Source of the DNA: Kofleriaceae bacterium
GTDB taxonomy: Bacteria > Myxococcota_A > Polyangia > Haliangiales > Haliangiaceae
Assembly: GCA_035489015.1 (NCBI GenBank)
Contig: DATHKR010000235.1
Location: 17,029-81,028, forward strand
DNA: 64,000 nt
Direction: 5' to 3'
In this document: in pieces, positions 1 through 58,681 of the stretch
How the letters are laid out: every line of letters begins with the position of its first letter
Numbering within the stretch: the stretch's first letter is position 1
The notes under the pieces: generated by a model
Seen by the model: only the letters and a program-made list of their open reading frames with translations
Database searches by the model: none
Told to the model about the DNA's origin: nothing
Position numbers and translations under genes: made by a program

Positions 1-2389
1 CGCCGCCGGTCAGCTGGGCGACGATGTCGGCCTGGGCCGCCGCGCGCACCGCGTCGTAGATCGATCGCTCGCGGGTGTCGAGCTCGACCGGCAGCACGCT
101 CTCGGTGCGCGGCGGCAGCTCGGGCGCCACCTCGCGCTTGAGGCGGCGGAGCACGAACGGGCGGATGATGTCGCGCAGGTGAGCCGCGGCGTCGGTCCGG
201 CCGGCGGCGATCGGCCCGGCCACCCGGCGCTGGAAGTCGGCGCGCGCGCCGAGCAGGCCGGGGTTGGCGAAGTGGCAAACGCTCCACAGCTCGTCGAGGC
301 GGTTCTCGACCGGCGTGCCGGTCAGCGCGGCGCGGAAGTGGGCGCGCAGGGCAAAGGCGGCCTGGGCCGACTGGCTGTCCGGGTTCTTGATCGCCTGGGC
401 CTCGTCGAGGATCGCCGCGCGCCAGGTCTCCTCGGCCAGCTGATCGCGGTCGCTGCGCAGGAGCGCGTAGCTGGTGACGACCACGTCGGCCGACGGATCG
501 AGCGCGCGGCGCGGGCCGTGATACAGGCAGACCGAGAGGTCGGGGCGGAAGCGGGCCAGCTCGGCCGCCCAGTTGTGGATCACGCTGGTCGGGCAGACGA
601 TGATCGTCCGCCCGTCGAGCGCGGCCAGCGCCTGCACCGTCTTGCCCAGGCCCATGTCGTCGGCCAGCACCGCGCCGAGCCCGGCCTCGCGCAGGAAGCA
701 CAGCCAGTCGACGCCGACGCGCTGGTAGGGGCGCAGCTCCGCGGTGAGGCCGGGCGGCAGCGCCGCCGCCGGGATGCGGCCGTCCTCATCGAACAGCGCC
801 GACAGCCGGCCGGCCGCGGCCGGGCGAGGCACCCCGAGCGCGTCGCACAGCGAGGCGAGCGCGGGCAGCGCCACCGCGCTGACCCTGCCACCCTCGCCGC
901 GCGCGGCCAGCAGCGACAGGACCCGCTGGCCGTGCCGGGCCAGGAAATCGGCCGGCAGCGGCGCCCACCCGCCTCCCTCGAGCGGCAGCAGATCGAGCCC
1001 GCTCTGCCACGCCGCCAGCACCGCCGCGCCGGACGCGCGCCGCACCTCGCCGCCGACCGGCTCCGAGGTCTCGAACCAGAGATCGAGCTCGGCGCCGACC
1101 GCGCTGGCCGCGCCGCCCGGACCCGCCGCGCCGCCCGCGCCGCCCGCGCCGCCCGCGCTGTCGACGTCGCGCACGAGCAGGTGGGGGATCAGCTCGACCT
1201 CGTGGAGCGCGTCGGTCAGCTTCGCGGGATCGTCGCCGCGCTGGAACGCGCGCACCCGCTCGACCAGCGCGCGCGCCTCGCTGCCGGTCGCGGTCACCCG
1301 CAGGCCGGGCACCATGTTCAGCCGGTCGCGCAGCGCGTTCACCAGCTCGAGCTCGGCCCGCCGATCGCGCACCGGCGCGGGCGGGCGGATCTGGATCATC
1401 CGGTCGCCGTCGATGCGAGCCAGCGCCGGATCGCCGTACACCAGGGTGGCCAGCACCGACAGCCGGTCGCCGTCGCCGGTGACCTCGAGGTGGATGCGCG
1501 GGCGCGCCTCGCGGGTGGCGCGCGGCAGGCGACGGCTGCGCACCTCGATCGCGATGTCGCGGCGCAGGGCCGGCAGCATCTGGGTGACCAGCTCGCCCAG
1601 CTCGGGCGGCGCGTAGTCGCGCACCAGCGGGAGCAGCTCCCACCGCTCGCCGGCCACCTCGGCGTGTCCGAGCGGGTGGAGGACGCCGTGCACCAGCGCG
1701 ATCCGCTCGCCGACGATCTCCTCGACCTGCGGGTCGGCCACCACCGCCAGGCGCACCCCCTCGCCGTGGTCGGTCAGCGAGCCGCGCGGCAGGACCGGAT
1801 CGCCCGACACCGCCACCGGGTTTCCGTCGAGGGTGACCCGCTCGCAGCCGGCCAGCGCCGCCAGCAGCGAGGGGACCAGGGCGCCGGTGATCGGCGTGCG
1901 CCCGCGGTTCTGGCCGACCAGGCGGTCGACCTCGAGATCGGCCTGGGTCGGGCGGAGATCGCCGCTCGGGTCGCGCGCGCGGCCGGACGCGATCGAGAAC
2001 AGCGACGTGACCAGCTCGATCTCGGTCCCGCCCGGGGCCAGCACCGCGCGGCGCAGGGTGAGCCGCCCGCTGGCGCGCTCCAGCCGGTAGACGACCTCGG
2101 TGGCGGAGCCCGGCTCGAGCTGGGCCTGGCTCAGCGCGATGACCGCGGCGGCGACGTGCTCGCACGCGTCGAACCGCGCGCCGCAGTCGCAGTCCCACTC
2201 GCCGTCGGCCGGGTAAAGGATGACGGTCCGCGCGATGGCGGCGCGGGGCGCGGCCACCCGCAGGACCAGCTCGTCGGCGCCGCCGCGCTCGCGGGTCACC
2301 GCTCGATCGCGGGCCAGCGAGATGCCCTTGGACCACAGGCCGCGCGGGCACGCCTCGCGCACCGCTTCGAGCAGGCGTTCGTCAGCCAC
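1..2389 (-). CDS. SNF2-family helicase with N-terminal SWIM zinc finger (C-terminal part lies beyond window start)
   Basis: Absent from the ORF track because it has no stop inside the window. Hand translation of the minus strand from GTG at 2389 gives [22 protein letters not shown]...[28 protein letters not shown] (SWIM CxC...CxH). About nt 740-600 gives [41 protein letters not shown] (SNF2 motif I). About nt 415-365 gives [15 protein letters not shown] (motif II). All pieces share one frame, and no listed minus ORF terminates in that frame. Confidence 0.85.
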
Positions 2390-12814: not shown

Positions 12815-14554
12815 TCACGGGTCCCGGGCCAGGCGGAACGTGACGTTGGCGTGGGCCGAGGGGCGCAGGCGGTCGGCCCGGTCGGGCTGGGCCTTCACCG
12901 CGCGCATCGCCTGGGCCCCCTGGGTGCCGTCGTCCACCCATTCCCACAGCGCCTTGCCGGCCGGCGAGAACTCCGCCGCCGCCGCCGCTCCGGTCCACTC
13001 GTCGGGGCCCAGGAGCCGCATCCCGCGGGCTCGCGCGTGCGCCTCGGCGTCGGCGTAGGACACGCCCACCGCGGGCAGGGCGGCCTGCTTCTTCGACAGC
13101 GGGGGCGGTGTCGGTTCACCCGGGCCGGGTGGGTGGGCCGCCGCGTACTCGCCCTGGCTGACCGGCGCTCGGGCCACGAACAACCACGGCGTGCCGTCCG
13201 GCCGCCGGACCAGGAACATCCCCTCGGGCACCACCGAATCGGCGGTGCGCGGGGCCGCGTCGGTCCGCCCGCCGGCGTCGTCGTCAGCCGCGCCCATCGC
13301 GGCCGCCTGGCGGTCGGGGCGCGGCCCGAACAGCATGAAACCGAGCCCGGTGAAGAACAGCAGCGCCGACACCACGGTCACCGCGACCAGCCAGCGGCCC
13401 AGCGCGGCGCGCCGCTCCGGCTCGTCGCCGGGCCGCAGGAGCGCCTGCGCCGCCGGGCGCATCACCGGTCGGTCGTCGGGACCCGCCGCCCCGCCGTGGC
13501 CGTGGCGCCGCTCGTCGGGCGTGGCCCGTCGCTGCCGGCCGTGGTCGTCGTTGCGGATCAGGGTCGCCGCCGCGTCGTCGGCTGCCGCCGCCACCTCGGA
13601 CGCGCGCTGGCCGCCGCGCCCGACCACGTACGGGGTCGGCTCCGGCGCCGACCGCGCGCTCGCGCCCGACACCGGCGGCAGCGACGACGACCCCTGCGAC
13701 TGCAGCCGGTCGACGATAGCGCTCAGCTGGCGGATGAGCTCCGGGTAGGCCGGCCGCTCGCCCGGCTTCTTCGCCATCATGCGCCGGCACAGCGCGGCCA
13801 CCTCCACGTCGGTGGACGGGTTCTTGGCCCGCGGATCCGGCGCCGGGTCCTTCAGGTGACGAGCGACCACCTTCAGGTACTTGTCCTCGGCCGCGTTGCC
13901 GGTGCGGAACGGGGGATCGCCGGTGCAGAGGTAGTAGAGCGTCCCGCCCAGCGCGTAGATGTCGACCCGCTCGTCGATCGTCTCGCCGCGCGCCTGCTCC
14001 GGCGCGATGTAGTCGGGCGTCCCGACCACCACGCCCATCGCGGTCAGGGCCGGCTCGTTCGACGGATCGAGCGGCTTGGCCAGCCCGAAGTCGGTCACCT
14101 TGACCACCCCGGACGAGAGCAGGACCAGGTTGGTCGGCTTCACGTCGCGGTGGATCAGGCCGGCCTGGGCGGCGGCCTGCAGCCCGCGGGCGGCGTCGAG
14201 GGTGGCGCGGGTGGCCTGCACCGACGACATCACGCCGTGCTGCTTCACCACGCTGCCGAGGTCGACCCCGTCGAGCAGCTCCATCGCGATGTACGGGCGC
14301 TGGTCGTGGGTGCCGGTGGTGAAGACCTGCACCACGTTGGGATGGGCGATGGCGGCCACCGCGCGCGCCTCGCGCACGAAGCGGGCCCGCAGCTCCTCGT
14401 TCTCGCGGTGCCGCTCGGACAGGATCTTGATCGCGACCGGGCGCTTGAGGTCGACGTCGATGCCGCGCACCACGTCGCCCATCGAGCCGGCGCCGATCAT
14501 CCCGACGACGCGGTATCGATCGACGATGGTGCCGGGTGCGAGCGCGCTGGTCAT
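12815..14554 (-). CDS. Ser/Thr protein kinase with TM helix and C-terminal FGE/SUMF1-like domain
   Basis: Track ORF 12815..14554. Motifs [37 protein letters not shown] helix [22 protein letters not shown]. The C-terminus ([23 protein letters not shown]...WEWVDD) is typical of the formylglycine-generating-enzyme fold. Confidence 0.9.
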
Positions 14555-14578
14555 GGCCGTGAGGTCCGCCGGCTGGGC

Positions 14579-16802: not shown

Positions 16803-17423
16803 TCACTCGGCTTCCCCGTCGGTGCCGGGCGGTTTCGGCTCGGCGGCCGGCTCGGTTGCCGGCTCCGCGGCCGGCTCGGCGGCGCCCTCGGCGGCCGGCT
16901 CGGCTACCGGCTCGGCGGCGCCCTCGGCGGCCGGAGCGGCCTTCGCCACCACGTCACCGTCGGCCCCCTCTTCACCGACCTCGCTGGCCGCCTCGTCGGT
17001 GCGGCGCAGCATGAGCTCCTCCTCGTCGGCCGCGGTGCTGGCCGCCTTGGTGTAGGTCTCCTCGGTGACCAGCGACTCCTTGGTGCCAGGATCGATGTCG
17101 CGGCCCGCCAGCACGGTCATGTAGCGGATCACGGGATCGAGCATTCGCATGTTGCGCTCGAACTCGGTCACCACCTGCGGCGAGCCCAGGTACGACCAGA
17201 ACAGGTAGATGCCCTTCAGCTCCTTCTTGATCTCGTAGGCGAGCTTCCGCTTGCCCCAGTTGTCGACGTTCAGCACCACGCCGCCCTGCGACTCGATGAT
17301 GCCGCGAACGCGCTGGTTGACGTCGGCCACCCGGTCGTTCTGGGTGTCGGGCCGAAGGATGTAGATCGTCTCGTACTCGCGCAATGTCCCTGGCGCGTCG
17401 GCCAGGCTCTGCAGGTCTGCCAT
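16803..17423 (-). CDS. rpsF: 30S ribosomal protein S6 with long acidic Ala/Glu/Pro C-terminal tail
   Basis: 3' part of track ORF 16803..17477. ATG at 17423 (MADLQSLADAPGTLREYETIYILRPD...NWGKRKLAYEIKK). About 100 extra C-terminal residues (AEPVAEPAAEGAAEPAAEPATEPAAEP). Confidence 0.93.
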   Translation of the reverse strand: MADLQSLADAPGTLREYETIYILRPDTQNDRVADVNQRVRGIIESQGGVVLNVDNWGKRKLAYEIKKELKGIYLFWSYLGSPQVVTEFERNMRMLDPVIRYMTVLAGRDIDPGTKESLVTEETYTKAASTAADEEELMLRRTDEAASEVGEEGADGDVVAKAAPAAEGAAEPVAEPAAEGAAEPAAEPATEPAAEPKPPGTDGEAE

Positions 17424-17449
17424 CTCGATCTCCTCGTGGGTGTGAAGCC

Positions 17450-17472
17450 CGCGGCGGCTGCTGTGCGCCGCG
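17450..17472 (-). promoter_or_regulatory. Hairpin in the 70-nt rpsF leader (candidate S6:S18 autoregulatory element)
   Basis: On the mRNA strand, CGCGGCG-(9 nt)-CGCCGCG forms a 7-bp stem, followed by GGAG 7 nt before the rpsF ATG. Only the stem is seen. The match to the published rpsF-leader motif is not verified. Confidence 0.2.
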
Positions 17473-17493
17473 AGCAAGGAGTGGCTGGTGGAC

Positions 17494-18108
17494 TCAGTCT
17501 ACCGGCTTTTCTCCAGCTCCGTTGAAGTCGTTCATCGCCGCGCGGATGCCGCGCGCCAGGATCGCCTCGACCGCGTCGCTCGCGCGACCGACCAGCTCGG
17601 CGATCTCTCGATCCATCTCGGCCGGGAAGTCGCCCAGCACGTGGCCGGACACGCGGCCCTGTACCGGCTCGCTCGCCGCGCCCGCCGCCGCCGGTCGCTC
17701 GGGCCGGCCGACCCCGATCCGGACCCGCAGGAAGTCGTTCGAGCCCAGCTGCTCGGCCACCGAGCGGATCCCGTTGTGCCCGCCGTGGCCGCCGCCCGCC
17801 TTCAGGCGCAGCCGCGCGAACGGCAGATCGATCTCGTCGTGCACGACGACCAGCTCCGCCGGCTCGGTGCCGTGGAACTGCGCCGCCCGCTGCACGGCGA
17901 AACCGCTGTGGTTCATGAACTCCATGGGTTTCAGGACCAGCGCCCGCTGCCTCGCGATGGCTCCCATCGCCGCTTGCCCGCCGAACTTCTCGCGCAGCGG
18001 CCCCAGGTCGTGACGTCGGACCAGCTCGTCCACGACCCGGAAGCCGATGTTGTGGCGGTTGCGCTCGTACTTGCGGCCGGGATTGCCCAGCCCGGCGATG
18101 AGCCACAC
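17494..18108 (-). CDS. pth: Peptidyl-tRNA hydrolase
   Basis: Track ORF 17494..18108, GTG start. Motifs WLIAGLGNPG, RHNIGF, GGHGGHNG. Confidence 0.95.
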   Translation of the reverse strand: MWLIAGLGNPGRKYERNRHNIGFRVVDELVRRHDLGPLREKFGGQAAMGAIARQRALVLKPMEFMNHSGFAVQRAAQFHGTEPAELVVVHDEIDLPFARLRLKAGGGHGGHNGIRSVAEQLGSNDFLRVRIGVGRPERPAAAGAASEPVQGRVSGHVLGDFPAEMDREIAELVGRASDAVEAILARGIRAAMNDFNGAGEKPVD

Positions 18109-18135
18109 GCTGCGTTCTCCACTCGGAGGCGGGGA

Positions 18136-18918
18136 CTACTTCTTCTTGTCGCCCCCCGCCTTGCCGCCAGCGGCCTTGCCGCCGCCCGCGGCCTTGCCAG
18201 CCGCCGCCTTGCCGCCCGCGGCAGCGCCAGCCGCCGCACCGGCCGCGGCGCCCGCCGCCTTCTTGTCGCCCTCGGCCACGACCGCGCCCTCGACCGCGAC
18301 AGCGCCCTCGACCGCCACGGCTGCCGTCTCGGTGGTCTCCTTCTCGACCTTCGGCGCGGCGCAGGTGACCAGGGTGAAGCTGTCCGGGAGCGCCGCCTTC
18401 ACGCCGGGCGGGAACGACACGTCCGACACATGGAAGGCGTCGCCGATCTTGAGCGGCGTGACGTCGAGCTCGAACTTGGTGGGGATCTCCGAGGGACGGC
18501 AGCGAACCCGCAGGGTGTGCCGCTCGGTGTGGATCTGCCCGCCGTCGACGGTGCCGATCGCCTTGCCGACCAGCACCAGCGGCACGTCCACGTCGATCTC
18601 CTTGTCCGGATCGATCGAGATGAGGTCGACGTGGGTGACGTTCCGGCGCAGCGCGTCGATCTGGTACTCCCAGAGCAGCGCCATCAGCTCGGTGTTCCCC
18701 GACCGGCCGTCCTCGACGGTGACGTTGATGACCGTGTTGCGGCCCCTGGCCGGATCGAGCGACGCCTTCAGCTCCTTGGCGTTCAGCACGATGGCGAGCG
18801 GCTGCTGGAGCTTCGCGCCGTAGCAGACGCCGGGGACCTTGCCAGTCGCGCGCAGGCGGCGAGTCTCGCCCTTGCCGGTGTCGTGGCGGATTTGAACGGT
18901 GAGCTTGCCGACTTCCAT
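18136..18918 (-). CDS. rplY: 50S ribosomal protein L25 / Ctc with Lys/Ala/Gly-rich tail
   Basis: Track ORF 18136..18918. Sequence RRLRATGKVPGVCYG...HVDL. C-terminal tail GDKKAAGAAAGAAAGAAAGGKAAAGKAAGGGKAAGGKAGGDKKK. Confidence 0.9.
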   Translation of the reverse strand: MEVGKLTVQIRHDTGKGETRRLRATGKVPGVCYGAKLQQPLAIVLNAKELKASLDPARGRNTVINVTVEDGRSGNTELMALLWEYQIDALRRNVTHVDLISIDPDKEIDVDVPLVLVGKAIGTVDGGQIHTERHTLRVRCRPSEIPTKFELDVTPLKIGDAFHVSDVSFPPGVKAALPDSFTLVTCAAPKVEKETTETAAVAVEGAVAVEGAVVAEGDKKAAGAAAGAAAGAAAGGKAAAGKAAGGGKAAGGKAGGDKKK

Positions 18919-18951
18919 GACGCGTTATCCTTGGTTGCTCGGGCTGGGTTC

Positions 18952-19893
18952 TCAGCTGAACAGGGAGCTGATCGAGTCGCCGTGGTGGATGCGCTTGACC
19001 GCCTCGCCGAGCAGACGCGCGACCGACAGCACCTTGACCTTGCTGCTGGCGCGCCCGAGCTCGTCGAGCGGAATGGTGTTGGTGACGATGACCTGGGTGA
19101 GCGGCGAGGCCTGGATGCGCTCGATCGCGTTGCCGGAGAAGACCCCGTGGCTGGCGCAGGCCATGACCGACTTGGCGCCGGCGTCCATCACCGCGCGGGC
19201 CGCGTTGCACAGCGTGCCGGCGGTGTCGATGATGTCGTCGGCGATGATGGCGTTCTTGCCCTTCACGTCGCCGACCACGTTCATCACCTCGGACACGTTC
19301 GGCGCCGAGCGCCGCTTGTCGATGATGGCCATGCCGCCGCCCAGCCGCTTCGAGTAGGCGCGGGCGCGCTCGACGCCGCCGGCGTCCGGCGAGACCACCA
19401 CCACGTCGCTGAGCGACATGTGGCGCAGCTCGTCGAGGAAGACCGGCATGCCGTAGAGGTGGTCGAACGGGATGTTGAAGAAGCCCTGGATCTGCCCGGC
19501 GTGGAGATCCATCGACACCACCCGGTCGGCGCCGGCCGACGAGATGAGGTCGGCGACCAGCTTGGCGGTGATCGGCGTGCGCGGCTTGGTCTTGCGATCC
19601 TGGCGCGCGTAGCCGAAGTAGGGCATGACCGCGACGATGCTCCCTGCCGACGCGCGCTTCAGCGCGTCGATCATGATGAGGAGCTCCATCAGCGACTGGT
19701 TGACCGGGGTGCAGGTCGACTGCACGACGAAGCAGTTCACTCCGCGGACGTTCTCGTTGATCTCGACGTAGATCTCACCGTCCGAGAAGTGCGTGACGTC
19801 GGCCCGGCCGAGCGGGATCTCGACGTACTTGCAGATCTCTTCCGCGATCGGACGGTTGGCGTTGGCGGTGAAGATGGACAGCGATTTCAGCAA
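18952..19893 (-). CDS. prs: Ribose-phosphate pyrophosphokinase
   Basis: 3' part of track ORF 18952..20346. There is no ATG near the conserved N-terminus. In-frame TTG at 19893 is preceded by GGAGG (GGAGGTTGC-TTG), giving (M)[19 protein letters not shown]... Motifs [31 protein letters not shown]. Confidence 0.92.
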
Positions 19894-20071
19894 GCAACCT
19901 CCGCTGGCCGACCGGATCGGGTCCGGCTGGAGAACGCAGCGATTTACACGCTGTACCCCCCGCACGTCAACTCGAAAGGCCGAAAGGCGTGCGGAATCAC
20001 TTGATTTCGCGCGGGTGGAAGCACCTTCGAGGGGTTGAAGGAGGGCAGGACGCGCCCCGGCCGCCGCCGGG

Positions 20072-22732
20072 TCACCGGGCGATGCGCTTGACCGCACCGT
20101 CGCGGAGGGTCGTCCAGTAGACGTGAGTCGCGTCGACGGCGATCGAGGATGGAAACAGCTGGCCGGCCGCCAGCACCCGCTGAGGACCGCCGGAGCGGGG
20201 GATCTCGAGGATGCTGCCCGGGCGCTCGGCGGAGGCGGTCGCGCAGTAGACGTGCGAGTCGTCGAGGGCGAGCATGAGCGGCCGGGTGTCCGTGGTGGCG
20301 AGCACGGCGGGGGGGCCGGTGAAGGGAGCGGCAAGGCCGAGCACACGGCCGCGGCTGGCCGCCCGCTCCCAGTCCCCCCAGTAGACGCCGCGGTCGTCTG
20401 CCTCGATGTCGCCGACCAGACAGATCCGCTCGGCGACGGTCGTCACCGGCCCTCCCGACAGCGGGACGAAGCTCACCCGGCCGTCGCACTCCACGTCGAA
20501 GGTCGATCGAGTGAAGAACAGGTTGCCGCCGCTGAAGGCGAAGAACGGGGTGTTGCCGAGGCCGCTGCCGAGCCCCTCGGCCAGGATCGATGGCGGCCCG
20601 CCGGACCTGGGCAGGACCAGGATCTGCCCGCCGCGGTCGGGCGTCGCCAGGTAGATGTCGTCGCCGGCGAGGCCGATCTGGAAGACCCGCAGCTCATCGA
20701 CCAGATCCACCGGCTCGCCGCCGGTCCGGGCCATGCTCTGCAGGCCACCCTCGCCGGGCACGGCGGCTCCTCTCGCCCAGTAGAGGCGCTGGCGGTCGAC
20801 CTCGAGGATGCCCACGTCGAGGACGCGGGTCTGGACATCGACGACCGGCCCGCCGCCCTGCTTGCTGGTTCGCCGGATGGCGGCGGGGCCCATGGCGCCC
20901 TTGCTGGTGGCGATCCAGAAGACCTCGCCGCCGTCGACCTCGAGCTCGGCCGGCATCTCCTGGCCGGTGGCGATGAGCTCGATCGGCGCCTGGCCCGGCG
21001 CACGGGTCGCCGCCGCCGCGCGCGCGAAGCTGGCCCGGGCGGCGTCGAGCTCGCGGAGCTGGTGCTGGATCGAGCCGAGCGCGTCCAGCGCCTCCGCCTG
21101 GGCCGGCGGGTACGAGAGCCGACCGGCCAGCTCGACCGCGCGGGACGCGATCGCGCGCGCCTCCCGGGGTCGCCCGTCGCTCGCCGCGGCGTCGGCGCTG
21201 GCGACCTGCTGGTGGACCGCGCGCACCGTCGCGAGGACGGCCGGATCGGCCGGCAGCGGGCGCGCGGCCAGGAGCGCGACCGGCTCGCCGCAGGCATCCA
21301 GCGACGGGAGCTGCTCGGTGATCGCGATCCGGGTGGACACCGATCCGGATCCGGCCTGCGTGAAGGCGCGGACCGCGGCGTCGAGGCTGCGCAGCCTGCG
21401 GTCGAGGCAGATCATGCGCCGATCGTGCAGATCGCCGGACAGGGTCCGCGCCACGTGAGTCGCCTGGCAGGTCTCCTCGTGCATCGCGGTCCAGCGCGTC
21501 GCGTAGTTGTCGAGCGTCCAGTCGATCCCCTCGCGGTGAGCCACGCCGTCCGCGAGCGAGGCCACCAGCGCGGCCCGGCGCTCCGGGTTCCAGATCGCGG
21601 CCACCCGCTCGCGCGCGCCGGCGCAGGGCGGCTGGTCCGGATCGCGCGCCGGGATCGCGAGCCACGCGGCTCCGCCGAAAAGGGCTGCCGCGGCGACGGC
21701 GGCGGCGACCCCGACCCGCCGTCGCCGGTGGAGCTGGCCGCGCAGGACCGGCAGGATCTCGTCCATCGAGGCGATCCGGCGGGCGGGGTCGGTCGCGAGG
21801 CCGCGCCGCAGCAGCCCGGTGAGGCGGCCGGGCAGGCGAGGGCGCCGCGGGATCGCGGGGGCGGCGGCGTCGCGCATCGCGGCGGCGAGCTCCGCGACCG
21901 ACCGACCGCCGAACGGGCGGCGGCCGTAGAGCGCCTCGTACAGCGCCGCGCAGTAGCTGAACACGTCGCTGCGCTCGTCGGCGTGACGGCCGGCGAGCTG
22001 CTCCGGTGCCATGTAGGCGATGGTCCCGACGACGGCGTCGCCTCGATCGCTGTCGCCGGTGGCGCCGCTCGGGCCGGCGCTGCCCGACCCGGCGGCGAGG
22101 CCGAAGTCGGTGAGGCAGACGCGGCCGTCCCGGCCGATGAGCATGTTCTGCGGCTTGACGTCGCGGTGGATCAGACCGGCCCGGTGCGCCGCGGCCAGGC
22201 CCTCGCCCGCCGCGAGCACGACCTCGACCACCTCGCGCCACGAGCGGGCCCGCTCCGCCCGCCACACGTCGAGCGGCCGCCCGTCGAGCCGCTCCATGGC
22301 CAGGAAGACCTCGCCATCCTCCTCGCCGACGTCGTGGACCGTGACCACGTTCGGATGCGACAGCCGCGCCAGCGCCTGCGCCTCGGCGACCAGGCGGGCG
22401 GCGTCCGCCGCGGTCGGCGAGCGGCGGAGCACCTTGATGGCGACCCGCCGCTGGAGCGCGGCGTCGAAGGCCGCGAACACCAGCCCCATCGCGCCGGAGC
22501 CGAGCAGCTCCTCGAGCTGGTAGCGGCCCAGCCTGGTCGACGGCTCGCTCGAGCGAGGCGGGGCCGCTGCCGACTGGCCCAGGGTGGAGCACGCGAGCGC
22601 GAAGACCAGCTCGCGGCAGTCGGCGCAGGCCGCGATGTGCTCGTCCACGTCGACATCGGGCAGACCGCCGCGGGCGCGCTGCACGTGGCGGGACAGCGTG
22701 TCCTCGTCGGGGCACGCGGCGTGGGCGGACAT
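20072..22732 (-). CDS. Transmembrane Ser/Thr kinase with N-terminal zinc-anti-sigma (ZAS) motif and extracytoplasmic TPR-like plus beta-propeller-like domains
   Basis: Track ORF 20072..22732. ZAS signature: C7...[10 protein letters not shown] (HxxxCxxC). Kinase motifs [33 protein letters not shown] helix [21 protein letters not shown]. The C-terminal ~300 aa carry repeated VFW/LYW/VYW blades. Confidence 0.9.
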
Positions 22733-22786
22733 CGGGATTGTCTTAACACCGCGTCGCCGGGGCGCGGGGCCCGGTGTTTGCTCTCG

Positions 22787-23869
22787 TCACTTGGGGACGC
22801 GCTTGACCTCTCCGTCGAAGGGCGTCGTCCAGTAGACGTGGCTCTGGTCGACGTTGACGAACAGCGGGACCAGCTGATCGGTGGCCAGCACCCGCCGCCC
22901 CCCGCCGAACTTCGACACCTTGCGGATCTGGCCCACGTCCGCGGGGGAGCCGGTCGTGTAGTAGACGCTGGCGTCGTCGAGCGCGAGCGAGAACGGCTGC
23001 GTCGTGACCGTGGCGAGGACCACCGGCGACCCGCTGGTGAAGGGCGCCTCCTTCTTGACCACCCGGCCCACACTGGTGGTGGTGTCGAACTCGGTCCAGT
23101 AGACCGCCCGGTGATCGGCCCCGATGCCGCGAAGACCGCAGATGCCCTCGGCGACGGTGACGAGCGCGCCGCCGGTCAGGGAGACGAACCGGACGCGGCC
23201 GTCGCACACCCCCTCGAAGGTGGACTGGGTGAAGAACGCCTTGCCGCCGCCGATCGCGATGAACGGGATGAAGTCGAGCCCGGGCCCGACATCCTCGGCC
23301 AGCGTGGTGACGGCGCCGCCGGTCCGGGCGACCTTGAGGACCCGGCCGCCGGCGTCCGGGCTGAGGAAGTAGATGTCACTGCCCTGGAGCGCGAAGTTGA
23401 ACACGCGGGTCGCGGCGACGACGTCGACCACCTCGCCGCCGGCCTTGGGCTCCGACTGGATGCCGCCGACGCCCTCCACGGCCGCGCCGGTCGACCAGTA
23501 CACCCGGCTGGCGTCGACCTCGATGCCTCCGATGTCCGGAATGCCCGCCTGGATCTCGGTCACCGCGCCGCCGCCCGACTTGCTGGCGCGACGGACGCTG
23601 CCGGGGTCGAGCCCGAAGTTGGGGGCGGTGGCCCAGTAGGCGCTGCTGCCGTCGACCTCGACGTCGGACGGGAACTCCTGCCCGGACGCGATCACGGTCG
23701 GCGTCGGCAGCGAGTCGGTGTCCGATTGCTCCGCCTCCTCGTCGGCGAGCGCCTCCTCGCGCTCGAGATCCGGGTCGAGGGACTGGCCGGCGCAGCCGAC
23801 GGCGAGCGCGAGCGCCAGCGAGCTCGCGCACAGGGACGACCTGAGAAATGCAACATTCACGTTCCACAC
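22787..23869 (-). CDS. Lipoprotein with beta-propeller-like domain, paralogous to the C-terminus of the adjacent kinase
   Basis: Track ORF 22787..23869, GTG start. Lipobox LAVGC. In a hand alignment of ~185 ungapped positions, about half the residues match kinase residues ~590-886. Confidence 0.85.
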   Translation of the reverse strand: MWNVNVAFLRSSLCASSLALALAVGCAGQSLDPDLEREEALADEEAEQSDTDSLPTPTVIASGQEFPSDVEVDGSSAYWATAPNFGLDPGSVRRASKSGGGAVTEIQAGIPDIGGIEVDASRVYWSTGAAVEGVGGIQSEPKAGGEVVDVVAATRVFNFALQGSDIYFLSPDAGGRVLKVARTGGAVTTLAEDVGPGLDFIPFIAIGGGKAFFTQSTFEGVCDGRVRFVSLTGGALVTVAEGICGLRGIGADHRAVYWTEFDTTTSVGRVVKKEAPFTSGSPVVLATVTTQPFSLALDDASVYYTTGSPADVGQIRKVSKFGGGRRVLATDQLVPLFVNVDQSHVYWTTPFDGEVKRVPK

Positions 23870-23956
23870 AGAACACCTCCGGGTCGCGCGGTCGTCGTTC
23901 GACGCCGCGCAGGTTCATCCGGGTGATGTCGCGGGATGGGCGCTTGTAGCGCCCGG

Positions 23957-24838
23957 TCAGGGCGAATCTGCCAGCAGCCGGTAAAGGCTCAGGTCCAGCT
24001 GACTGTCGAGCAGGCGAACCGCGCCGTCGAGATCGCCGTCGTCGAGCGCGAGTGCAACTCGAAGGCGATCGCGCGTTCCGCTCAGGAGCGTCTTGCGGAT
24101 GCGGGCGATCCAGCGCGACGCCGTGACCCGGTGGATCCCGTAGACGCGCGCGATCTCGCCGATGCCGCGGTCGTCGACCAGGAGGGCGCGCAGCACCGCG
24201 CGATCGCGCGGCGCCAGCCCGGCCACCGCCGCCTGAAACGCCGCCTTGAGCTCCAGGCGGTGGCGATCGCGCAGGGCGGCGAGATAGGGATCGTCGGTCA
24301 CGCCGAGGATGTCGTCATCGAGCTCGGCGTGCGGCTTCTGCCGCCGCATCAGCGCCAGACCTTGTCGCCCGGCCACGGCGCTGGTCCACGCCACCAGCGG
24401 GCCGATGCCCTGATAGCTCGCCAGCCGCGGCGGCCCACCGTCGATCGGGATGAGCAGCCGCGTCCGCACGTCCTGCTTGACGTCGTCGGCGTCGGCGCTG
24501 GACAGGCCGAGGCGGGCCAGGACGCGGCCGGCCCGCTCGAGCACCGCGCGGTCGAAGTGACCGATCGCGATCGGGTCTCCGCCGACGCAGGCCCACGCCA
24601 GATAGAGATCGGCGGCGTGAGCAGGCAACGCCGCCTCCCCCTCGTCCGGGGCCACCCGTCGGGCCAGGTAGGCGGCGACCTCGCCCTCGTCGAGCCGGAC
24701 GCCGGGCCATTGCCGGCGAGCGTCAGCCACGACCCCGGTCAGCGCCTCGCGCAGCCCGGACCAGACCTCGAACGAGGAGCGGAGCTCGGGCGGCAGCGCG
24801 GCCAGGAAATCGGCCGCCAGCTGGTCCGCGTCGAGCAT
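23957..24838 (-). CDS. Sigma-70-family (ECF-like) RNA polymerase sigma factor with extended N-terminus
   Basis: Track ORF 23957..24838. Region-2-like DLYLAWACVGGD. Region-4 HTH: PRDRAVLRALLVDDRGIGEIARVYGIHRVTASRWIARIRKTL. Confidence 0.75.
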   Translation of the reverse strand: MLDADQLAADFLAALPPELRSSFEVWSGLREALTGVVADARRQWPGVRLDEGEVAAYLARRVAPDEGEAALPAHAADLYLAWACVGGDPIAIGHFDRAVLERAGRVLARLGLSSADADDVKQDVRTRLLIPIDGGPPRLASYQGIGPLVAWTSAVAGRQGLALMRRQKPHAELDDDILGVTDDPYLAALRDRHRLELKAAFQAAVAGLAPRDRAVLRALLVDDRGIGEIARVYGIHRVTASRWIARIRKTLLSGTRDRLRVALALDDGDLDGAVRLLDSQLDLSLYRLLADSP

Positions 24839-24928
24839 CGCGATCCCAGTCTACGCGCGGGTGCGGCTCGAGAGGAGTCTTGACCGAATCGACCGCCGCC
24901 AGGCCCAAAGGAGGGTAAGGATCCACCG

Positions 24929-25153
24929 ATGCCGCTGTCAGCTGAGCTCCTCGCCATCCTGGTCTGCCCCGAGTCCAGGCAGCCGCTCCTCCACATCCCG
25001 CCCGGCGCCGACGGTGCCGGCGAGTCGCTGTTCTGCCCCGCGTCGCGGCTGCGCTACCGGGTCGAGGACGGCATCCCGGTCATGCTGGTCGAGGACGCCG
25101 AGCGGCTCGACGAGGCGGCGGCCGAGCGGCTCAAGGGGCTGGCGGCTCGCTGA
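24929..25153 (+). CDS. Trm112/YcaR-family small zinc-ribbon protein
   Basis: Track ORF 24929..25153. Sequence LLAILVCPESRQPL...FCPASRLRYRVEDGIPVMLVEDA. AAGGAGGG lies upstream. Confidence 0.85.
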   Translation: MPLSAELLAILVCPESRQPLLHIPPGADGAGESLFCPASRLRYRVEDGIPVMLVEDAERLDEAAAERLKGLAAR

Positions 25154-25215
25154 CCGGTCGGGTCTGGTTCCCAACCCACCACCTGCCCAGGCCGACCGCG
25201 GCGCGGGGCGGCGCG

Positions 25216-25638
25216 TCAGCCCGCCGCGATCCGGGCGGCGACGTCCTCGGCCAGCTTTCTGGCCTCCTCGCCGTCGAGGTTGAGCGGCTTCCAGCCCAGG
25301 CCGAGCCCGCTGCCGTCGTCCGCCATCGGGATGATGTGAAAGTGGACGTGGAAGACGGCCTGGTGGGCGCGGGCGCCGTTGTTCTGCAGGACGTTGAAGT
25401 CGCGCGTCCCGGTCGCCGCCATGACCGCGCGGGCGATGCGCGGCAGCACCCGGCCCAGCGCCGCGGCCGACTCGTCCGACAGCTGATCCAGGGTGGCGAC
25501 CACCTCCTTGGGAATGATCAGGGTGTGGCCGCGGGTCAGCGGGTTGATGTCGAGGAACGCGAGGACGCGGTCGTCCTCGTACACCTTGTGGCAGGGAAGC
25601 TCCCCGCGCAGGATCTTGTTGAAGATCGTCTCCGGCAT
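25216..25638 (-). CDS. HIT-family nucleotide hydrolase/transferase
   Basis: 3' part of track ORF 25216..25833. ATG at 25638 (MPETIFNKILRGELPCHKVYEDD...). Histidine triad HVHFHIIP. Confidence 0.9.
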   Translation of the reverse strand: MPETIFNKILRGELPCHKVYEDDRVLAFLDINPLTRGHTLIIPKEVVATLDQLSDESAAALGRVLPRIARAVMAATGTRDFNVLQNNGARAHQAVFHVHFHIIPMADDGSGLGLGWKPLNLDGEEARKLAEDVAARIAAG

Positions 25639-25805
25639 CGCGCGAGAGTAGCCCAGCGCCCGCGACGCGGGGCGGCGTGGCGCAATCCGACAGCCACCCG
25701 CGCGAGTGTCGTCAAAACCAGCGCGCACGTGGCGCGGCGCCGGCGAGATCGCGCGATGTCGCGGGGTCAGCCGCCGGCACGCGTCTTGTTTGTGTGCCAG
25801 GCGGA

Positions 25806-26750
25806 ATGGCTCTTCAGCGCAGAAGAACTCCACTGACCCTGCTGGTGCTTCTGGTCGGTCTGCCCGCCGTCATCGGGGGGTGCAGCGACTCGGTCGACGG
25901 GGTGGCGCCGGTCGGCGGCGAGGAGCCGTCGTCGGTCGAGCTCGAGCGGTTCGTCCGCCGGCTGCACCTCGATCTGACCGCGCGGCCGGCCAGCGACGAC
26001 TACCTGGCCGACGCGGTCGCCGAGCTGGAGGCCGACACCCGCGCCCAGGGCGGCAGCGCCGAGACGCGCGGGGCGATCGCCGACCGGCTGATCGACTCGG
26101 AGGAGTTCGCGCAGACCTCGGTCGACGAGCTGTCGAACCGGGTGTTCGGCGGCGAGGACCCCGACACTCGCTACTCGCTCATCTGCGGGATCGCCCGCGA
26201 CGAGGATCCGGCCTGCGCGACGTGTGGCCCGGCCCCGTCGGGAGATCCGTGCGGCGGCTGCGATTGCCCCGCGCTGGTCCGCATCGACGGCGACCGCCAG
26301 GCGGTGGTCGACGCGGCGGCCGATCTGGCCGGCGGCAGCGCCTCCACCTCGGCGGTCGACCGCCGCTTCGCCGGCTCGAGCGCGCTGGCCGGCTTCTCCG
26401 CGCCCGAGGCGCTGGCCGATCAGCTGTTCCAGATCTTCCTCGGCCGGCCGGCCGAGGCGGACGAGGTGGCCAACGCGCAGTCGATGATCGTCGGCACCTT
26501 CCTGCCCGACAGCCCGGCCGGGCTGCTGTTCCACCGGCACGGCGCCGACTACCAGGACCTGCTCGACATCGTCTTCGAGTCGGAGGTCTACCGCGACGCG
26601 GCCACCAGCGCCGTGTTCGACCGCTACCTGGGCCGCCCGGCCACCCTGGCCGAGATCGCCCACTTCTCGGCCCAGCTCGACGGTGACGATCCGGACGTCC
26701 GCCCGGTCATCCGCGCCGTCGTCTCATCCCAGGAGTACTTCGAGCAATGA
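25806..26750 (+). CDS. Lipoprotein with DUF1549/DUF4214-like helical repeats and a Cys-rich insert
   Basis: 3' part of track ORF 25677..26750. ATG 25806. Lipobox VIGGC. Repeated motif FVRRLHLDLTARP / LFQIFLGRPAEADE / VFDRYLGRPATLAE. Cys-rich insert CATCGPAPSGDPCGGCDC. Confidence 0.7.
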   Translation: MALQRRRTPLTLLVLLVGLPAVIGGCSDSVDGVAPVGGEEPSSVELERFVRRLHLDLTARPASDDYLADAVAELEADTRAQGGSAETRGAIADRLIDSEEFAQTSVDELSNRVFGGEDPDTRYSLICGIARDEDPACATCGPAPSGDPCGGCDCPALVRIDGDRQAVVDAAADLAGGSASTSAVDRRFAGSSALAGFSAPEALADQLFQIFLGRPAEADEVANAQSMIVGTFLPDSPAGLLFHRHGADYQDLLDIVFESEVYRDAATSAVFDRYLGRPATLAEIAHFSAQLDGDDPDVRPVIRAVVSSQEYFEQ

Positions 26751-42150: not shown

Positions 42151-43290
42151 TCAGAAGCGCAGCGACGCGGACACGCCGACCTGATCCGGACCGATCATCG
42201 GCGCCAGCGCGGCGCTCTGGTCGGCGCGGTGGCGGCGGGCGCGGAAGAACAGGATGCCGGACACGATCGCGCTGGCCCCCGCCCCGGCGAAGCAGATGTT
42301 GGCGACGAGCGACCGCTGCTCGGCCCGGTCGGCCACGCGCTTCGCCTTGCTGAACTCGACCTCGTACTCGGTGCCGCGGATGTCGTCGAGCTCGTCCACC
42401 GCCGACTGCGCGCTGATGCCCGCCCAGGTCCCGGCCGCGCCGACCGCCACCGCGACCCCGCCCCACAGGATCCAGCTGGCGTAGATCGGCGGCCGCTCGC
42501 TCCGGCTCTCCACCGACGCGTCCGCCCGCGGGCTGGCCGCGACCGCCTGCGCGCTGGCCGGGGCCGGCTCGTCGGCGGTCGGGCGCGCGCCGCCCGAGTC
42601 GATGTCGAGCGAGAGCGGCGCGTCGGGGCTGCCCAGCTCGACCACGCGGTTGCCGTGCTGGTCCACGCCGGCGATGGTGAAGCGGGTCACCCCGCGCGGC
42701 AGCTCCAGGTCGAAGCGCGCCCCGTCACCGGGCGGGGTCTTGCCGGCCGCGCCCCCGCCGGCCACCGACAGCTCGGCGCCGTCGGCGCGGCGGTAGGCGA
42801 TGCGCGCGCCGACCACCACGCCCATCGGATCCGACTGCACGATCACCGCGATGACGACCGGGTTCTGGCCGACGATGCGGTGCGCGATGGCCAGCGGCTT
42901 CGCGCCGCGCAGCGCCTTGCGCGCCCTGCGGAACGGCCGGTTGATCTTCGGCGACAGCCCCGCGCGCAGCTCGAGGCCGGGGTCGATCGCCAGCGCCAGG
43001 CGGAACGCCTTTTCCGCCGCCGCGGCGTGGTCGAGGCTGGCGCGCACCTCGCCGAGCAGGAGGTAGAGCTGCGCGGTCGTCGCCGGCCCGCTGGTGCCGG
43101 CCTCGAGCGTCTTTCCGAGGGTGGCGAGCGCGTCGTCGTAGCGCAGCTCGCCGAGCTGGGTCCGCGCCCGCTCGAGGCCGCCCTCGTCCTGGGCCTGGGC
43201 CGCCGCGCGACCGGGCCCCGCTGCCACCAGCACGAGCACGAGCGCGACCCCCAGCCGCCGCGCCGGCATGGATCTCGGCTCGCTCACCAT
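42151..43290 (-). CDS. Exported TPR-like protein with C-terminal membrane helices
   Basis: Track ORF 42151..43290 (ATG; an alternative ATG at 43269 gives MPARRLGVALVLVLVAAGPG). One TPR-like unit, a beta-rich middle, and two hydrophobic helices near the C-terminus. Overlaps the upstream kinase stop by 7 nt. Confidence 0.62.
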   Translation of the reverse strand: MVSEPRSMPARRLGVALVLVLVAAGPGRAAAQAQDEGGLERARTQLGELRYDDALATLGKTLEAGTSGPATTAQLYLLLGEVRASLDHAAAAEKAFRLALAIDPGLELRAGLSPKINRPFRRARKALRGAKPLAIAHRIVGQNPVVIAVIVQSDPMGVVVGARIAYRRADGAELSVAGGGAAGKTPPGDGARFDLELPRGVTRFTIAGVDQHGNRVVELGSPDAPLSLDIDSGGARPTADEPAPASAQAVAASPRADASVESRSERPPIYASWILWGGVAVAVGAAGTWAGISAQSAVDELDDIRGTEYEVEFSKAKRVADRAEQRSLVANICFAGAGASAIVSGILFFRARRHRADQSAALAPMIGPDQVGVSASLRF

Positions 43291-45824: not shown

Positions 45825-45992
45825 ACGAAAGAACGCGCTAGTATACCCGACCCGTTCGGAGCGCAGCCGGGGCAAACGGGGCCGCTTCCTCGTCCGCGCT
45901 CCATTGGCAGTCATGCAGAACACTCACATCCGGTGTTCCTGCTGCGGGCCGATCGTCACCAACGGTGTGCTCGCGCGCTACACTGGCCGACC

Positions 45993-48698: not shown

Positions 48699-48797
48699 GG
48701 GAAATCGGGTGGATCAGGCTCTCTCATCATAACCCACGCTTCACGGTAAGTCCGCCGCCTGGCGCGTTCTCGCGACCGGCGTTATGATCTCGCGTCC

Positions 48798-56785: not shown

Positions 56786-56789
<4 letters not shown>

Positions 56790-58462: not shown

Positions 58463-58681
58463 CGAGAGGCACGCTTCCACCGCGATCCGGCGCCGTCGCA
58501 CCGGGCGCGGAGAGCTCCGCTGTCGGGCCGGGTGGAATGGGCGCACATTGTACAGTGGCGTCCGCGCAAACGCCGAGTTTTGGCCTCCTTGGAACCCTCG
58601 GGGCCGCCGCCCTGCGAGAGCCCGGTGGGAGACTGGGTGCAAGGGTGCGACGGACGTGCGCCCGGCGCGCCGCGGCTCGCG

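Follow-up and report, generated by a model that had tools for sequence, protein, structure and literature searches.

Three open reading frames, read from the sequence, lie together on the minus strand of the window, the 64-kb stretch of DNA that we analyzed. They encode an ECF-like sigma factor, a lipoprotein and a Hanks-type Ser/Thr kinase (Table 1), with gaps of 87 nt (sigma/lipoprotein) and 54 nt (lipoprotein/kinase), just as the first-pass annotation stated. Neither a conserved promoter nor a conserved phospho-acceptor site was found.

Table 1. Genes of the locus and the domains of their predicted products.
Feature	Residues	Coordinates	Strand	Basis or content
ECF-like sigma factor, TIGR03001 family	293 aa	23957..24838	-	TIGR03001 and Sigma70_r4_2 matches, AF2 model
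Sigma: N-terminal 4-helix extension	1-~72			AF2 model
Sigma: sigma2	~75-170			contains D116-A-D-D119-V-K-Q122-D123
Sigma: acidic linker	between sigma2 and sigma4			
Sigma: sigma4 HTH	~184-263			
Sigma: extra C-terminal helices	267-290			
Lipoprotein	360 aa	22787..23869	-	sequence; 49% identity to kinase 586-886
Hanks Ser/Thr kinase	886 aa	20072..22732	-	sequence, Pkinase match
Kinase: DdvA-like CHCC zinc anti-sigma domain (predicted)	1-52	22577..22732	-	conservation, profile matches, AF2
Kinase: Hanks-type Ser/Thr kinase domain	71-322	21767..22522	-	Pkinase E=2e-42, full catalytic motif set
Kinase: single TM helix	340-360	21653..21715	-	sequence; continuous AF2 helix 323-356
Kinase: periplasmic all-helical domain	~366-580	20993..21637	-	AF2 pLDDT ~90, weak TPR_12
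Kinase: periplasmic repeat propeller	586-886	20075..20977	-	49% identity to lipoprotein

Sigma factor, lipoprotein and receptor kinase

The sigma factor had been described as ECF-like, with an N-terminal extension and a region-4 helix-turn-helix, and profile searches and a structure model bear this out. It matches TIGR03001 ('Myxococcales family 1') with 197 bits (cut-off 154.6) and Sigma70_r4_2 with E=4.5e-7. With TIGR02937, a model for ECF factors in general, the score is 40.7 bits, slightly below the cut-off of 42.9. ECF sigma factors are the top PDB fold matches of the AlphaFold2 (AF2) model (pLDDT 93.6), the best at E 3.8e-3 and none at E <= 0.001. The N-terminal extension is a family trait, with four helices within residues 4-60 and a conserved W44-P45, and the family's specific C-terminal extension carries near-invariant serines (S272, S279 and S284).

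Residues D116, D119 and Q122 do not vary among the 17 closest relatives (A2); this retained acidic DxxDxxQ(D/E) core-binding motif rules out an ECF43-like identity. In ECF43 sigma factors, phosphorylation is obligatory at two sites that correspond to this motif and to the linker (PMC13147305). Because our sigma factor keeps both the motif and an acidic linker, the two sites of the ECF43 phospho-switch are already "on". Such an intact core-binding surface suggests that the protein is probably active whenever it is free, so that a negative regulator would be required.

The lipoprotein gene starts with GTG, and its product has the signal peptide (ending LAVGC) and lipobox (Cys26) that its name implies. 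An acidic linker leads into a propeller of the YWTD/Ldl_recept_b/DUF5050 type (residues 59-360), in which we count seven repeats by eye; the propeller family has 9138 representatives, and relatives match Ldl_recept_b and DUF5050. Alignment with residues 586-886 of the kinase (E=3e-94) shows the lipoprotein to be a paralogue of the kinase's own C-terminal propeller, with the kinase copy as its source or sister, a relationship that the first-pass annotation overlooked. In a sister lineage the gene is cut to a 93-aa remnant and is dispensable, and it is absent from all other related loci. The three genes had been put forward as one cassette. Adjacency of sigma factor and kinase does recur, but the lipoprotein does not: because it is a lineage-specific duplicate, the three-gene cassette is, judged from these loci, not a conserved unit, nor the lipoprotein a component of the family.

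Every part previously assigned to the kinase was recovered, namely a Hanks domain, one transmembrane (TM) helix, a TPR-like region and a propeller. The catalytic motifs are complete (K100, H189-R190-D191, N196, D209-F210-G211 and A242-P243-E244). Since the single TM helix directly follows an RRRR stretch (R336-R339), the N-terminus should be cytoplasmic and the C-terminus periplasmic. Outside the membrane, the helical domain bears four near-invariant cysteines (C370, C422, C442 and C481), ends in one or two TPR-like repeats (weak TPR matches) and is common to the whole kinase-TPR family. The propeller stands where most family members have a long TPR array. AF2 confidence falls below pLDDT 50 across it (residues 586-886), no propeller match was found in other loci, and only P0002 covered the full kinase length in the homologue search.

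The predicted zinc module at the kinase N-terminus

The kinase begins with a set of putative zinc ligands, C7-x24-H32-x3-C36-x2-C39, on three predicted helices (10-21, 27-35 and 37-52; pLDDT 71-92), and a disordered Ser/Thr/Pro-rich tail follows (residues 53-66). On this protein alone the zf-HC2 model spans just the HxxxCxxC half and scores 14.4 bits (E=0.042) against a cut-off of 22.2. The bare HxxxCxxC motif occurs once among the 116,599 six-frame ORF residues of the 64-kb window, about the one occurrence that a rough estimate predicts by chance. Because the motif itself is not rare, the anti-sigma identity of the module rests on conservation and profile searches.

All four ligands are retained in a 60%-identical orthologue, and of the 120 homologues closest to the kinase, 46 contain HxxxCxxC, so that conservation extends from the orthologue to a large subfamily of kinases. 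In an alignment of 27 modules, the spacing from first cysteine to histidine is constant and the H, C and C are invariant; the first ligand is cysteine in at least 90% of sequences and histidine in a few, as in ChrR. Twenty-four of these 27 family members match zf-HC2. Searched against PDB sequences, the module profile matches class I anti-sigma structures only (RslA, 9e-7; DdvA, 1.5e-4; ChrR, 7e-3; RsiW, 1.2e-2). These profile matches identify the module as a homologue of class I zinc anti-sigma (ZAS) domains, and no other ZAS module was found in the window. The first-pass annotation's ZAS signature thus holds for the ligands and the homology, but not as a full four-helix domain: the AF2 model has three helices, a short form predicted to lack helix 4, as in Myxococcus DdvA.

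Pairing of kinase and sigma factor in related loci

Related kinases were examined in 80 metagenome loci, where a TIGR03001-family sigma factor adjoins 7 of 11 ZAS-bearing kinases versus 1 of 69 ZAS-less kinases (Fisher p=8e-7). Three of the four ZAS-bearing kinases without an adjacent sigma factor sit in loci interrupted by a contig end. The top 37 loci behave in the same way (7/10 versus 0/27, p=1.2e-5). Viewed from the sigma factor, a ZAS-kinase is adjacent in 12 of 20 genome loci and in Nannocystis exedens, and the two genes may be co-directional, convergent or divergent. In three loci (L028, L036 and L059) the kinase starts 9-44 nt past the sigma gene, the classical anti-sigma position. 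A mirror-tree correlation gives r=0.87, a value for which co-inheritance alone could account. Across these loci, a ZAS module on a kinase predicts a neighboring sigma factor of this family. The pairing is common in the phylum, and we found no published description of it.

This association bears on whether the zinc module might govern the kinase itself, for instance by sensing redox state or zinc or through dimerization, with no sigma contact and with adjacency reflecting a shared regulon. Some ZAS domains do sense redox state (RsrA/RshA; PMC8999054), and at L055, where the flanks are ample, a ZAS-kinase stands with no sigma gene beside it. Against these, the module associates strongly with a single sigma family whatever the gene orientation, it also exists as a protein of its own at the anti-sigma position, and every structural relative of the module is a sigma binder. 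We consider self-regulation very improbable.

The free proteins, 54-78 aa long and here called mini-ZAS, lie directly downstream of the sigma gene in 15 of 20 related loci. Because they recur there under purifying selection (pN/pS 0.09-0.38), the ZAS module is the habitual partner of this sigma family. Nine loci hold both a mini-ZAS and a ZAS-kinase, and in these the free protein may be the real anti-sigma factor, with the kinase module competing or recruiting. The same could apply at our locus if a mini-ZAS were encoded elsewhere in the genome: the kinase module would compete for the sigma factor or bind the mini-ZAS, and the kinase would phosphorylate one of them, much as PknB of Mycobacterium tuberculosis phosphorylates the soluble ZAS anti-sigma factors RshA and RseA and frees SigH and SigE (reviewed in PMC8999054). 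However, the window holds no mini-ZAS, and none was detected in N. exedens, L012, L021, L022, L028, L036 or L059, where a ZAS-kinase is present; we judge such competition to be rather unlikely here. The earlier proposal that one polypeptide could both sequester and phosphorylate its sigma factor may hold at this locus. It is not a rule for the family, because most related loci add a free mini-ZAS beside the sigma gene.

In four loci (L006, L008, L009 and L013) the mini-ZAS stands beside the sigma gene with no kinase nearby, which suits an inhibitor and not a docking site. This weighs against a reading in which the module merely recruits the sigma factor as a substrate and phosphorylation activates it without sequestration, as in the ECF43 pairs EcfP/PknT and EcfK/PknS. 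Hanks kinases adjoining ECF sigma factors do phosphorylate them directly (PMC13147305; PMC8999054), and the near-invariant C-terminal serines of the sigma family would be compatible with this; yet the acidic motif and linker are kept, and the module is homologous to sigma-inhibiting domains. PknS also places an 81-residue N-terminal helical region ahead of its kinase domain (PMC13147305), but no PknS chain was among the PDB sequences that the ZAS profile matched. Docking without inhibition therefore seems unlikely to us.

A candidate release switch and known systems

The central idea of the first-pass annotation withstood each computational test applied to it. We favor, with a probability of roughly 0.5, a pairing of sigma and anti-sigma factor in which a membrane-spanning receptor Ser/Thr kinase itself serves as the anti-sigma factor and its built-in kinase domain as the release switch. 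The first ~52 residues of the kinase would fold as a zinc-bound Cys-His-Cys-Cys three-helix domain of the DdvA type. Together with the flexible tail, this domain would bind and inhibit the co-encoded sigma factor and keep it at the inner membrane, beside the kinase active site. A periplasmic signal, sensed by the Cys-rich helical domain and the propeller, would toggle the Hanks kinase, probably via dimerization and autophosphorylation. Phosphorylation of the tail, the anti-sigma domain or the sigma factor would then release the sigma factor to RNA polymerase; we infer both the target and the direction of this switch. Phospho-release would stand in place of the regulated proteolysis used by classical membrane anti-sigma factors. 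The lipoprotein, as a secreted copy of the propeller from the same operon, most likely modulates sensing, perhaps as a ligand decoy or as a partner of the kinase propeller, and could thereby add feedback. This role is purely conjectural.

As the first-pass annotation correctly stated, classical ZAS anti-sigma factors have no catalytic domain, and kinase-linked ECF sigma factors are generally described as lacking a cognate anti-sigma factor. RslA, ChrR, RsiW and RsrA carry the zinc motif H/C-x(21-26)-H-x3-C-x2-C on helices 1-3, as does the kinase module, but they have a fourth helix and lack a catalytic domain, whereas the module has three helices only.

The closest parallel is DdvA-DdvS of Myxococcus xanthus, from the same phylum, a transmembrane ZAS anti-sigma factor and its ECF sigma factor (PDB 8RLZ, 8ROT). 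The N-terminal CHCC three-helix bundle of DdvA, without helix 4, binds sigma2 and sigma4 and sequesters DdvS (PMC11506125). In both proteins the bundle lies at the extreme cytoplasmic N-terminus (in DdvA, ligands C6/H28/C32/C35 and helices 5-14, 19-29 and 33-46, then a ~20-residue disordered tail), and a single TM helix leads to a large TPR-containing periplasmic region. Unlike DdvA, our kinase has a full Hanks domain (~270 aa) that separates its TM helix from the anti-sigma domain, and its periplasmic output is a propeller (TPR in relatives) in place of TPR-CHAT. DdvS is a minimal 182-aa ECF protein freed by regulated proteolysis (RseP); its counterpart here has N- and C-terminal extensions, and a phospho-switch is proposed.

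The ECF43 pairs, EcfP-PknT (Vibrio parahaemolyticus) and EcfK-PknS (Xanthomonas citri), likewise combine neighboring genes for an ECF-type sigma factor and for a receptor Ser/Thr kinase that crosses the membrane once and whose periplasmic sensor varies. The acidic sigma2.2 motif is missing from their sigma factors (consensus QTTA), which phospho-Thr activates, in contrast to the DxxDxxQD and acidic linker found here, and these systems are described without the anti-sigma factor that our kinase is predicted to carry. PknB with RshA and RseA offers the precedent of a Hanks kinase acting on a ZAS anti-sigma/ECF sigma complex. There the kinase is global, separate and unlinked from the anti-sigma factor, whereas here both activities would reside in one polypeptide encoded beside its sigma factor.

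Organization and products of the cassette

The ORF coordinates bear out three co-directional genes separated by gaps of 87 and 54 nt, as the first-pass annotation had described, in DNA of ~72% G+C. Because a Trm112p-like gene diverges from the sigma gene upstream and a possible convergent ORF lies downstream, the three genes look like one operon. The divergent gene leaves only ~90 nt for a sigma promoter. At the other end, an unannotated long plus-strand ORF stops 68 nt from the kinase gene and would be convergent with it if it is a gene. By eye, no shared ECF-type motif was seen in the 160-nt regions upstream of the sigma genes at 17 loci, and a scan of window positions 19800-25300 for sigma-70 promoters and terminators gave nothing useful. 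The window encodes four further Hanks-type kinases, whose C-termini are FGE-sulfatase-like, PEGA or devoid of a recognised domain; none of the four has a zinc anti-sigma (ZAS) module or an adjacent sigma gene.

Positions of features in the window and, where a locus handle (L) is given, in related loci from genome and metagenome scans
Feature	Position	Strand	Details
Sigma gene	23957-24838	minus	293 aa
Lipoprotein gene	22787-23869	minus	360 aa; GTG start; lipobox LAVG-C26
Kinase gene	20072-22732	minus	886 aa
Sigma C-terminal extension	23969-24040		sigma aa 267-290
Kinase helical domain	20993-21637		kinase aa ~366-580
Trm112p-like gene	~24931-25152	plus	74 aa; Pfam E=6e-8; divergent from sigma
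HIT-domain protein gene	25216-25833	minus	Pfam HIT E=8e-26; upstream of cassette, beyond Trm112-like gene
Long ORF 3' of kinase	17488-20004	plus	overlaps the next; no Pfam match
Long ORF 3' of kinase	17270-19210	minus	overlaps the previous; no Pfam match
Further Hanks-type kinase	12818-14578	minus	
Further Hanks-type kinase	43287-45923	minus	
Further Hanks-type kinase	47442-48713	minus	
Further Hanks-type kinase	56789-58681	minus	
93-aa ORF of sister organism	L001:679-960		identical in L103:5170-5451 and L104:2400-2681
Free module ORFs (mini-ZAS)	e.g. L018:7836-8012, L006:7852-8004		L003, L004, L006-L011, L013, L014, L016-L020

The first gene product is an ECF (group 4) sigma factor of the TIGR03001 subfamily. 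It scores 197 bits against the NCBIfam model TIGR03001 ('Myxococcales family 1'; cut-off 154.6) and 40.7 bits against the generic ECF model TIGR02937, slightly below the cut-off of 42.9. The Sigma70_r4_2 (region 4) match is above cut-off, and a Pfam search did not detect sigma70_r2. In the AlphaFold2 model (pLDDT 93.6, from 110 homologues), four N-terminal helices (4-60) precede sigma2, an acidic linker of low confidence leads on to sigma4, and two further helices close the C-terminus, so that both the N-terminal extension and the region 4 noted on first reading are recovered. ECF sigmas are its top PDB fold matches (sigmaE, AlgU, SigL, SigW and CnrH), the best at E=3.8e-3 and none at E <= 0.001. 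The canonical acidic surface that touches RNA polymerase is DxxDxxQE; here it reads D116-A-D-D119-V-K-Q122-D123, with D116, D119 and Q122 invariant across the 17 closest relatives. Because this motif is kept, the sigma factor, when free, should bind core polymerase.

The family-specific two-helix extension that follows sigma4, a candidate for a docking or phospho-acceptor site, contains near-invariant S272, S279 and S284 and the motif LDLSLYRLL.

From N to C terminus, the kinase comprises a ~52-residue module, a 14-residue disordered Ser/Thr/Pro-rich tail, the Hanks domain, a transmembrane (TM) helix, a helical periplasmic domain and a propeller. Its Pkinase profile match has E=2e-42 and the catalytic set is complete (GSGAMG, K100, H189-R190-D191, N196, D209-F210-G211 and A242-P243-E244); by its motifs it is predicted to be an active Hanks-type Ser/Thr kinase. 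The single TM helix spans residues 340-360, with four Arg just before it. AlphaFold2 modelled the helical domain, which gives a weak TPR signal, with confidence and did not resolve the C-terminal repeat propeller (pLDDT <50). The full Hanks kinase, one TM helix, TPR-like region and propeller-like end of the first-pass annotation are thus all recognizable. The helical domain, for which Pfam has no dedicated family, is common to the whole Myxococcota kinase-TPR family, where it has near-invariant C370, C422, C442 and C481 and a conserved Trp.

The second gene does encode a 360-aa lipoprotein, with a putative signal peptide whose lipobox Cys lies in VWNVNVAFLRSSLCASSLALALAVG-C26, as read from the sequence. 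Residues 59-360 are 49% identical to kinase residues 586-886 (E=3e-94), and seven (V/I)Y(W/F) repeats can be counted by eye. The propeller domain family is large (9138 representatives at E<=1e-3), with relatives that match Ldl_recept_b (YWTD) and DUF5050. On the kinase, a propeller occurs only in the window lineage and its sister; other kinases of the family carry long TPR arrays. Between sigma and kinase, the sister organism (L001, L103 and L104, which are one sequence) has only a 93-aa C-terminal remnant. This ORF matches the lipoprotein propeller over its last ~2 blades, lacks a signal peptide and shares 4 nt, at its stop, with the start of the kinase gene; it could be a deletion remnant or a retained small gene. 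Given the identity to the kinase propeller, the restriction of that propeller to one lineage and the remnant in the sister, the lipoprotein is a recent, lineage-specific copy of the kinase sensor, outside the conserved system. The triad proposed at first therefore holds as to genes and coordinates but not as a conserved unit of three. As a decoy or a co-receptor, the lipoprotein might still play a part.

The putative N-terminal zinc module

The putative ligands at the kinase N-terminus are spaced C7-x24-H32-x3-C36-x2-C39, in agreement with the class I pattern, in which another Cys or His ligand precedes HxxxCxxC by about 21-26 residues. Taken alone, the kinase matches Pfam zf-HC2 only over the HxxxCxxC half and below cut-off (E=0.042; 14.4 bits against 22.2). 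The bare HxxxCxxC pattern occurs exactly once in the six-frame translation of the window, where a rough estimate gives about one by chance. On sequence grounds, it is comparison with relatives, not the single-sequence match, that settles the motif as real. All four ligands are kept in a 60%-identical orthologue, and C[PL][DE]E...H...C..C precedes the kinase domain in 46 of the 120 best homologues, the named ones all Myxococcota; 11 of these 46 already carry a precomputed zf-HC2 match. In an alignment of 27 modules, the spacing is gapless, H32, C36 and C39 are invariant, and position 7 is Cys in >=90%, with a few modules having His there as ChrR does. The zinc-anti-sigma signature first read from the sequence is therefore conserved. 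As for zf-HC2, 24 of the 27 modules match individually at E<=0.01, although the kinase of the window does not reach the cut-off.

Searched against the PDB sequence set, the module profile matches only class I anti-sigma factors at E<0.1 (RslA 9e-7, DdvA 1.5e-4, ChrR 7e-3, RsiW 1.2e-2), and other folds are absent. Most class I ZAS domains have three helices plus a fourth that contacts sigma2. AlphaFold2 places helices at residues 10-21, 27-35 and 37-52 of the module, then disorder, and helix 4 is absent. The kinase carries the one ZAS module in the 64-kb window.

Linkage of the module to the sigma family

Scanning GTDB genomes with a 17-sequence sigma alignment (a 31-sequence one was too diverse for scanning) yielded 20 loci from Kofleriaceae and Haliangiales MAGs. 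At 12 of these loci, and likewise in Nannocystis exedens, a kinase bearing the module (ZAS-kinase) adjoins the sigma gene, in co-directional, convergent or divergent orientation. The metagenome scan started from the kinase and returned 80 loci. Eleven of these kinases have the module, and a TIGR03001-type sigma adjoins seven; a contig end truncates three of the other four. Among the 69 module-less kinases, only one has an ECF-like neighbour (Fisher p=8e-7 over all 80 loci; 7/10 vs 0/27, p=1.2e-5, over the 37 closest). The position directly after the sigma gene is the classical one for an anti-sigma gene, and at three loci (L028, L036 and L059) the ZAS-kinase starts 9-44 nt past the sigma stop. 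The module thus lies beside an ECF sigma gene of cognate type and is co-inherited with it. A purely intramolecular role for the module, set beside this linkage, is very improbable.

Sigma and ZAS trees are correlated (mirror-tree r=0.87, Mantel p=2e-4, n=14); we set this aside as a sign of contact, since co-inheritance accounts for it. The sole candidate for a natural sigma-ZAS fusion among the sigma homologues (protein P0214) is probably a frameshifted gene call and was discounted as evidence.

The module also exists on its own. A very small ORF follows the sigma gene closely in 15 of the 20 genome loci and encodes a 54-78-aa protein consisting of the module alone (mini-ZAS). Metagenome annotators called such ORFs as genes (P0241-P0249), and pN/pS values of 0.09-0.38 between closely related pairs indicate purifying selection. 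That a free module adjoins the sigma gene in most loci shows the module to be the habitual partner of the TIGR03001-type family. Nine loci have both mini-ZAS and ZAS-kinase, and some only one or the other; within the 64-kb window there is no mini-ZAS. The free proteins complicate, across the family, the first-pass proposal that one polypeptide both holds and phosphorylates the sigma. The kinase module might instead compete with a free one, an explanation we consider improbable and which would find no mini-ZAS to act on in the window.

Mini-ZAS sequences fall into at least two types (HCLxCRDC and HFDxCxxCRxLxFxLAGLDPEK), and at L008 and L013 no in-frame ATG, GTG or TTG start precedes the module. 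In some relatives, as at the P0248 locus (JGI contig, 37,706 bp), the operon runs from sigma through a Lambda_Bor-like lipoprotein (105 aa) and a 113-aa protein to mini-ZAS. A lipoprotein between sigma and ZAS gene thus recurs, with a fold unrelated to that of the window lipoprotein.

A candidate mechanism and known systems

DdvA is the membrane ZAS anti-sigma of the ECF sigma DdvS in Myxococcus xanthus. Its N-terminal domain is a CHCC three-helix bundle (C6/H28/C32/C35) without helix 4 and with a disordered tail; it binds sigma2 and sigma4 and sequesters DdvS, and helix 3 lengthens upon sigma4 binding (PMC11506125). The kinase module is predicted to have the same form and, since the DdvA domain is functional without helix 4, the lack of that helix here need not be a defect. 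By homology and precedent, the module probably binds the sigma factor.

The best-supported reading of the cassette is a DdvA-like membrane anti-sigma whose TM helix, unlike that of DdvA, is separated from the anti-sigma domain by a Hanks kinase. That zinc bundle and tail would hold the sigma is suggested by homology, by synteny, by the precedent of DdvA and by the sigma factor's need for a negative regulator. The tail leads directly into the kinase N-lobe; because the segment that lengthens when DdvA binds sigma4 joins the N-lobe here, bound sigma would lie at the active site. By analogy with PknB acting on RshA and RseA (PMC8999054), the kinase would respond to periplasmic sensing and would free the sigma through phosphorylation. 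We give this full model, anti-sigma hold with kinase-driven release, a probability of about 0.5; the specific release step, argued from analogy, we rate lower.

Extended to the family, ZAS-kinases may be widespread, unrecognised regulators of Myxococcota ECF sigmas. A built-in Hanks kinase would replace regulated proteolysis, a reversible, periplasm-sensed phospho-switch would free the sigma, and mini-ZAS and secreted sensor paralogues would buffer it. We offer this wider view tentatively, as rather doubtful. A kinase built in this way would also explain how the large myxobacterial family TIGR03001 is controlled, with reversible, non-proteolytic sigma release from the membrane. The parts are all known, and the architecture is already visible in precomputed Pfam annotations. 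Full-text literature searches turned up no account of a Ser/Thr kinase with a fused anti-sigma domain, and a brief mention elsewhere is possible. Single-sequence Pfam scans often miss the module, so it is easily overlooked, and other kinase-linked ECF groups may merit re-examination.

ECF sigmas and Hanks kinases are two main bacterial signalling systems, and their known link is direct phospho-activation of sigmas that have no anti-sigma. A kinase with a DdvA-type anti-sigma domain would merge both logics in a single protein. In the ECF reclassification, kinase-linked groups typically lack anti-sigma factors; if the wider view is true, some of these 'kinase-linked ECFs without anti-sigma' would have one, within the 50 N-terminal residues of their kinase. 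In the kinase-activated group ECF43, the DxxD of sigma2.2 is replaced by uncharged residues and a conserved Thr, and the charge is regained only via phosphorylation (PMC13147305). Because the sigma factor here retains its acidic DxxDxxQ motif (D116/D119/Q122), it is not of ECF43 type, and the anti-sigma-type domain also departs from that class. A module that merely docks the sigma for ECF43-like activation would fit the conserved proximity of Hanks kinase and sigma, which both systems share; with the motif intact, we regard it as unlikely. ECF43 systems have no anti-sigma, whereas here the kinase itself bears an anti-sigma-type domain and relatives add free mini-ZAS genes.
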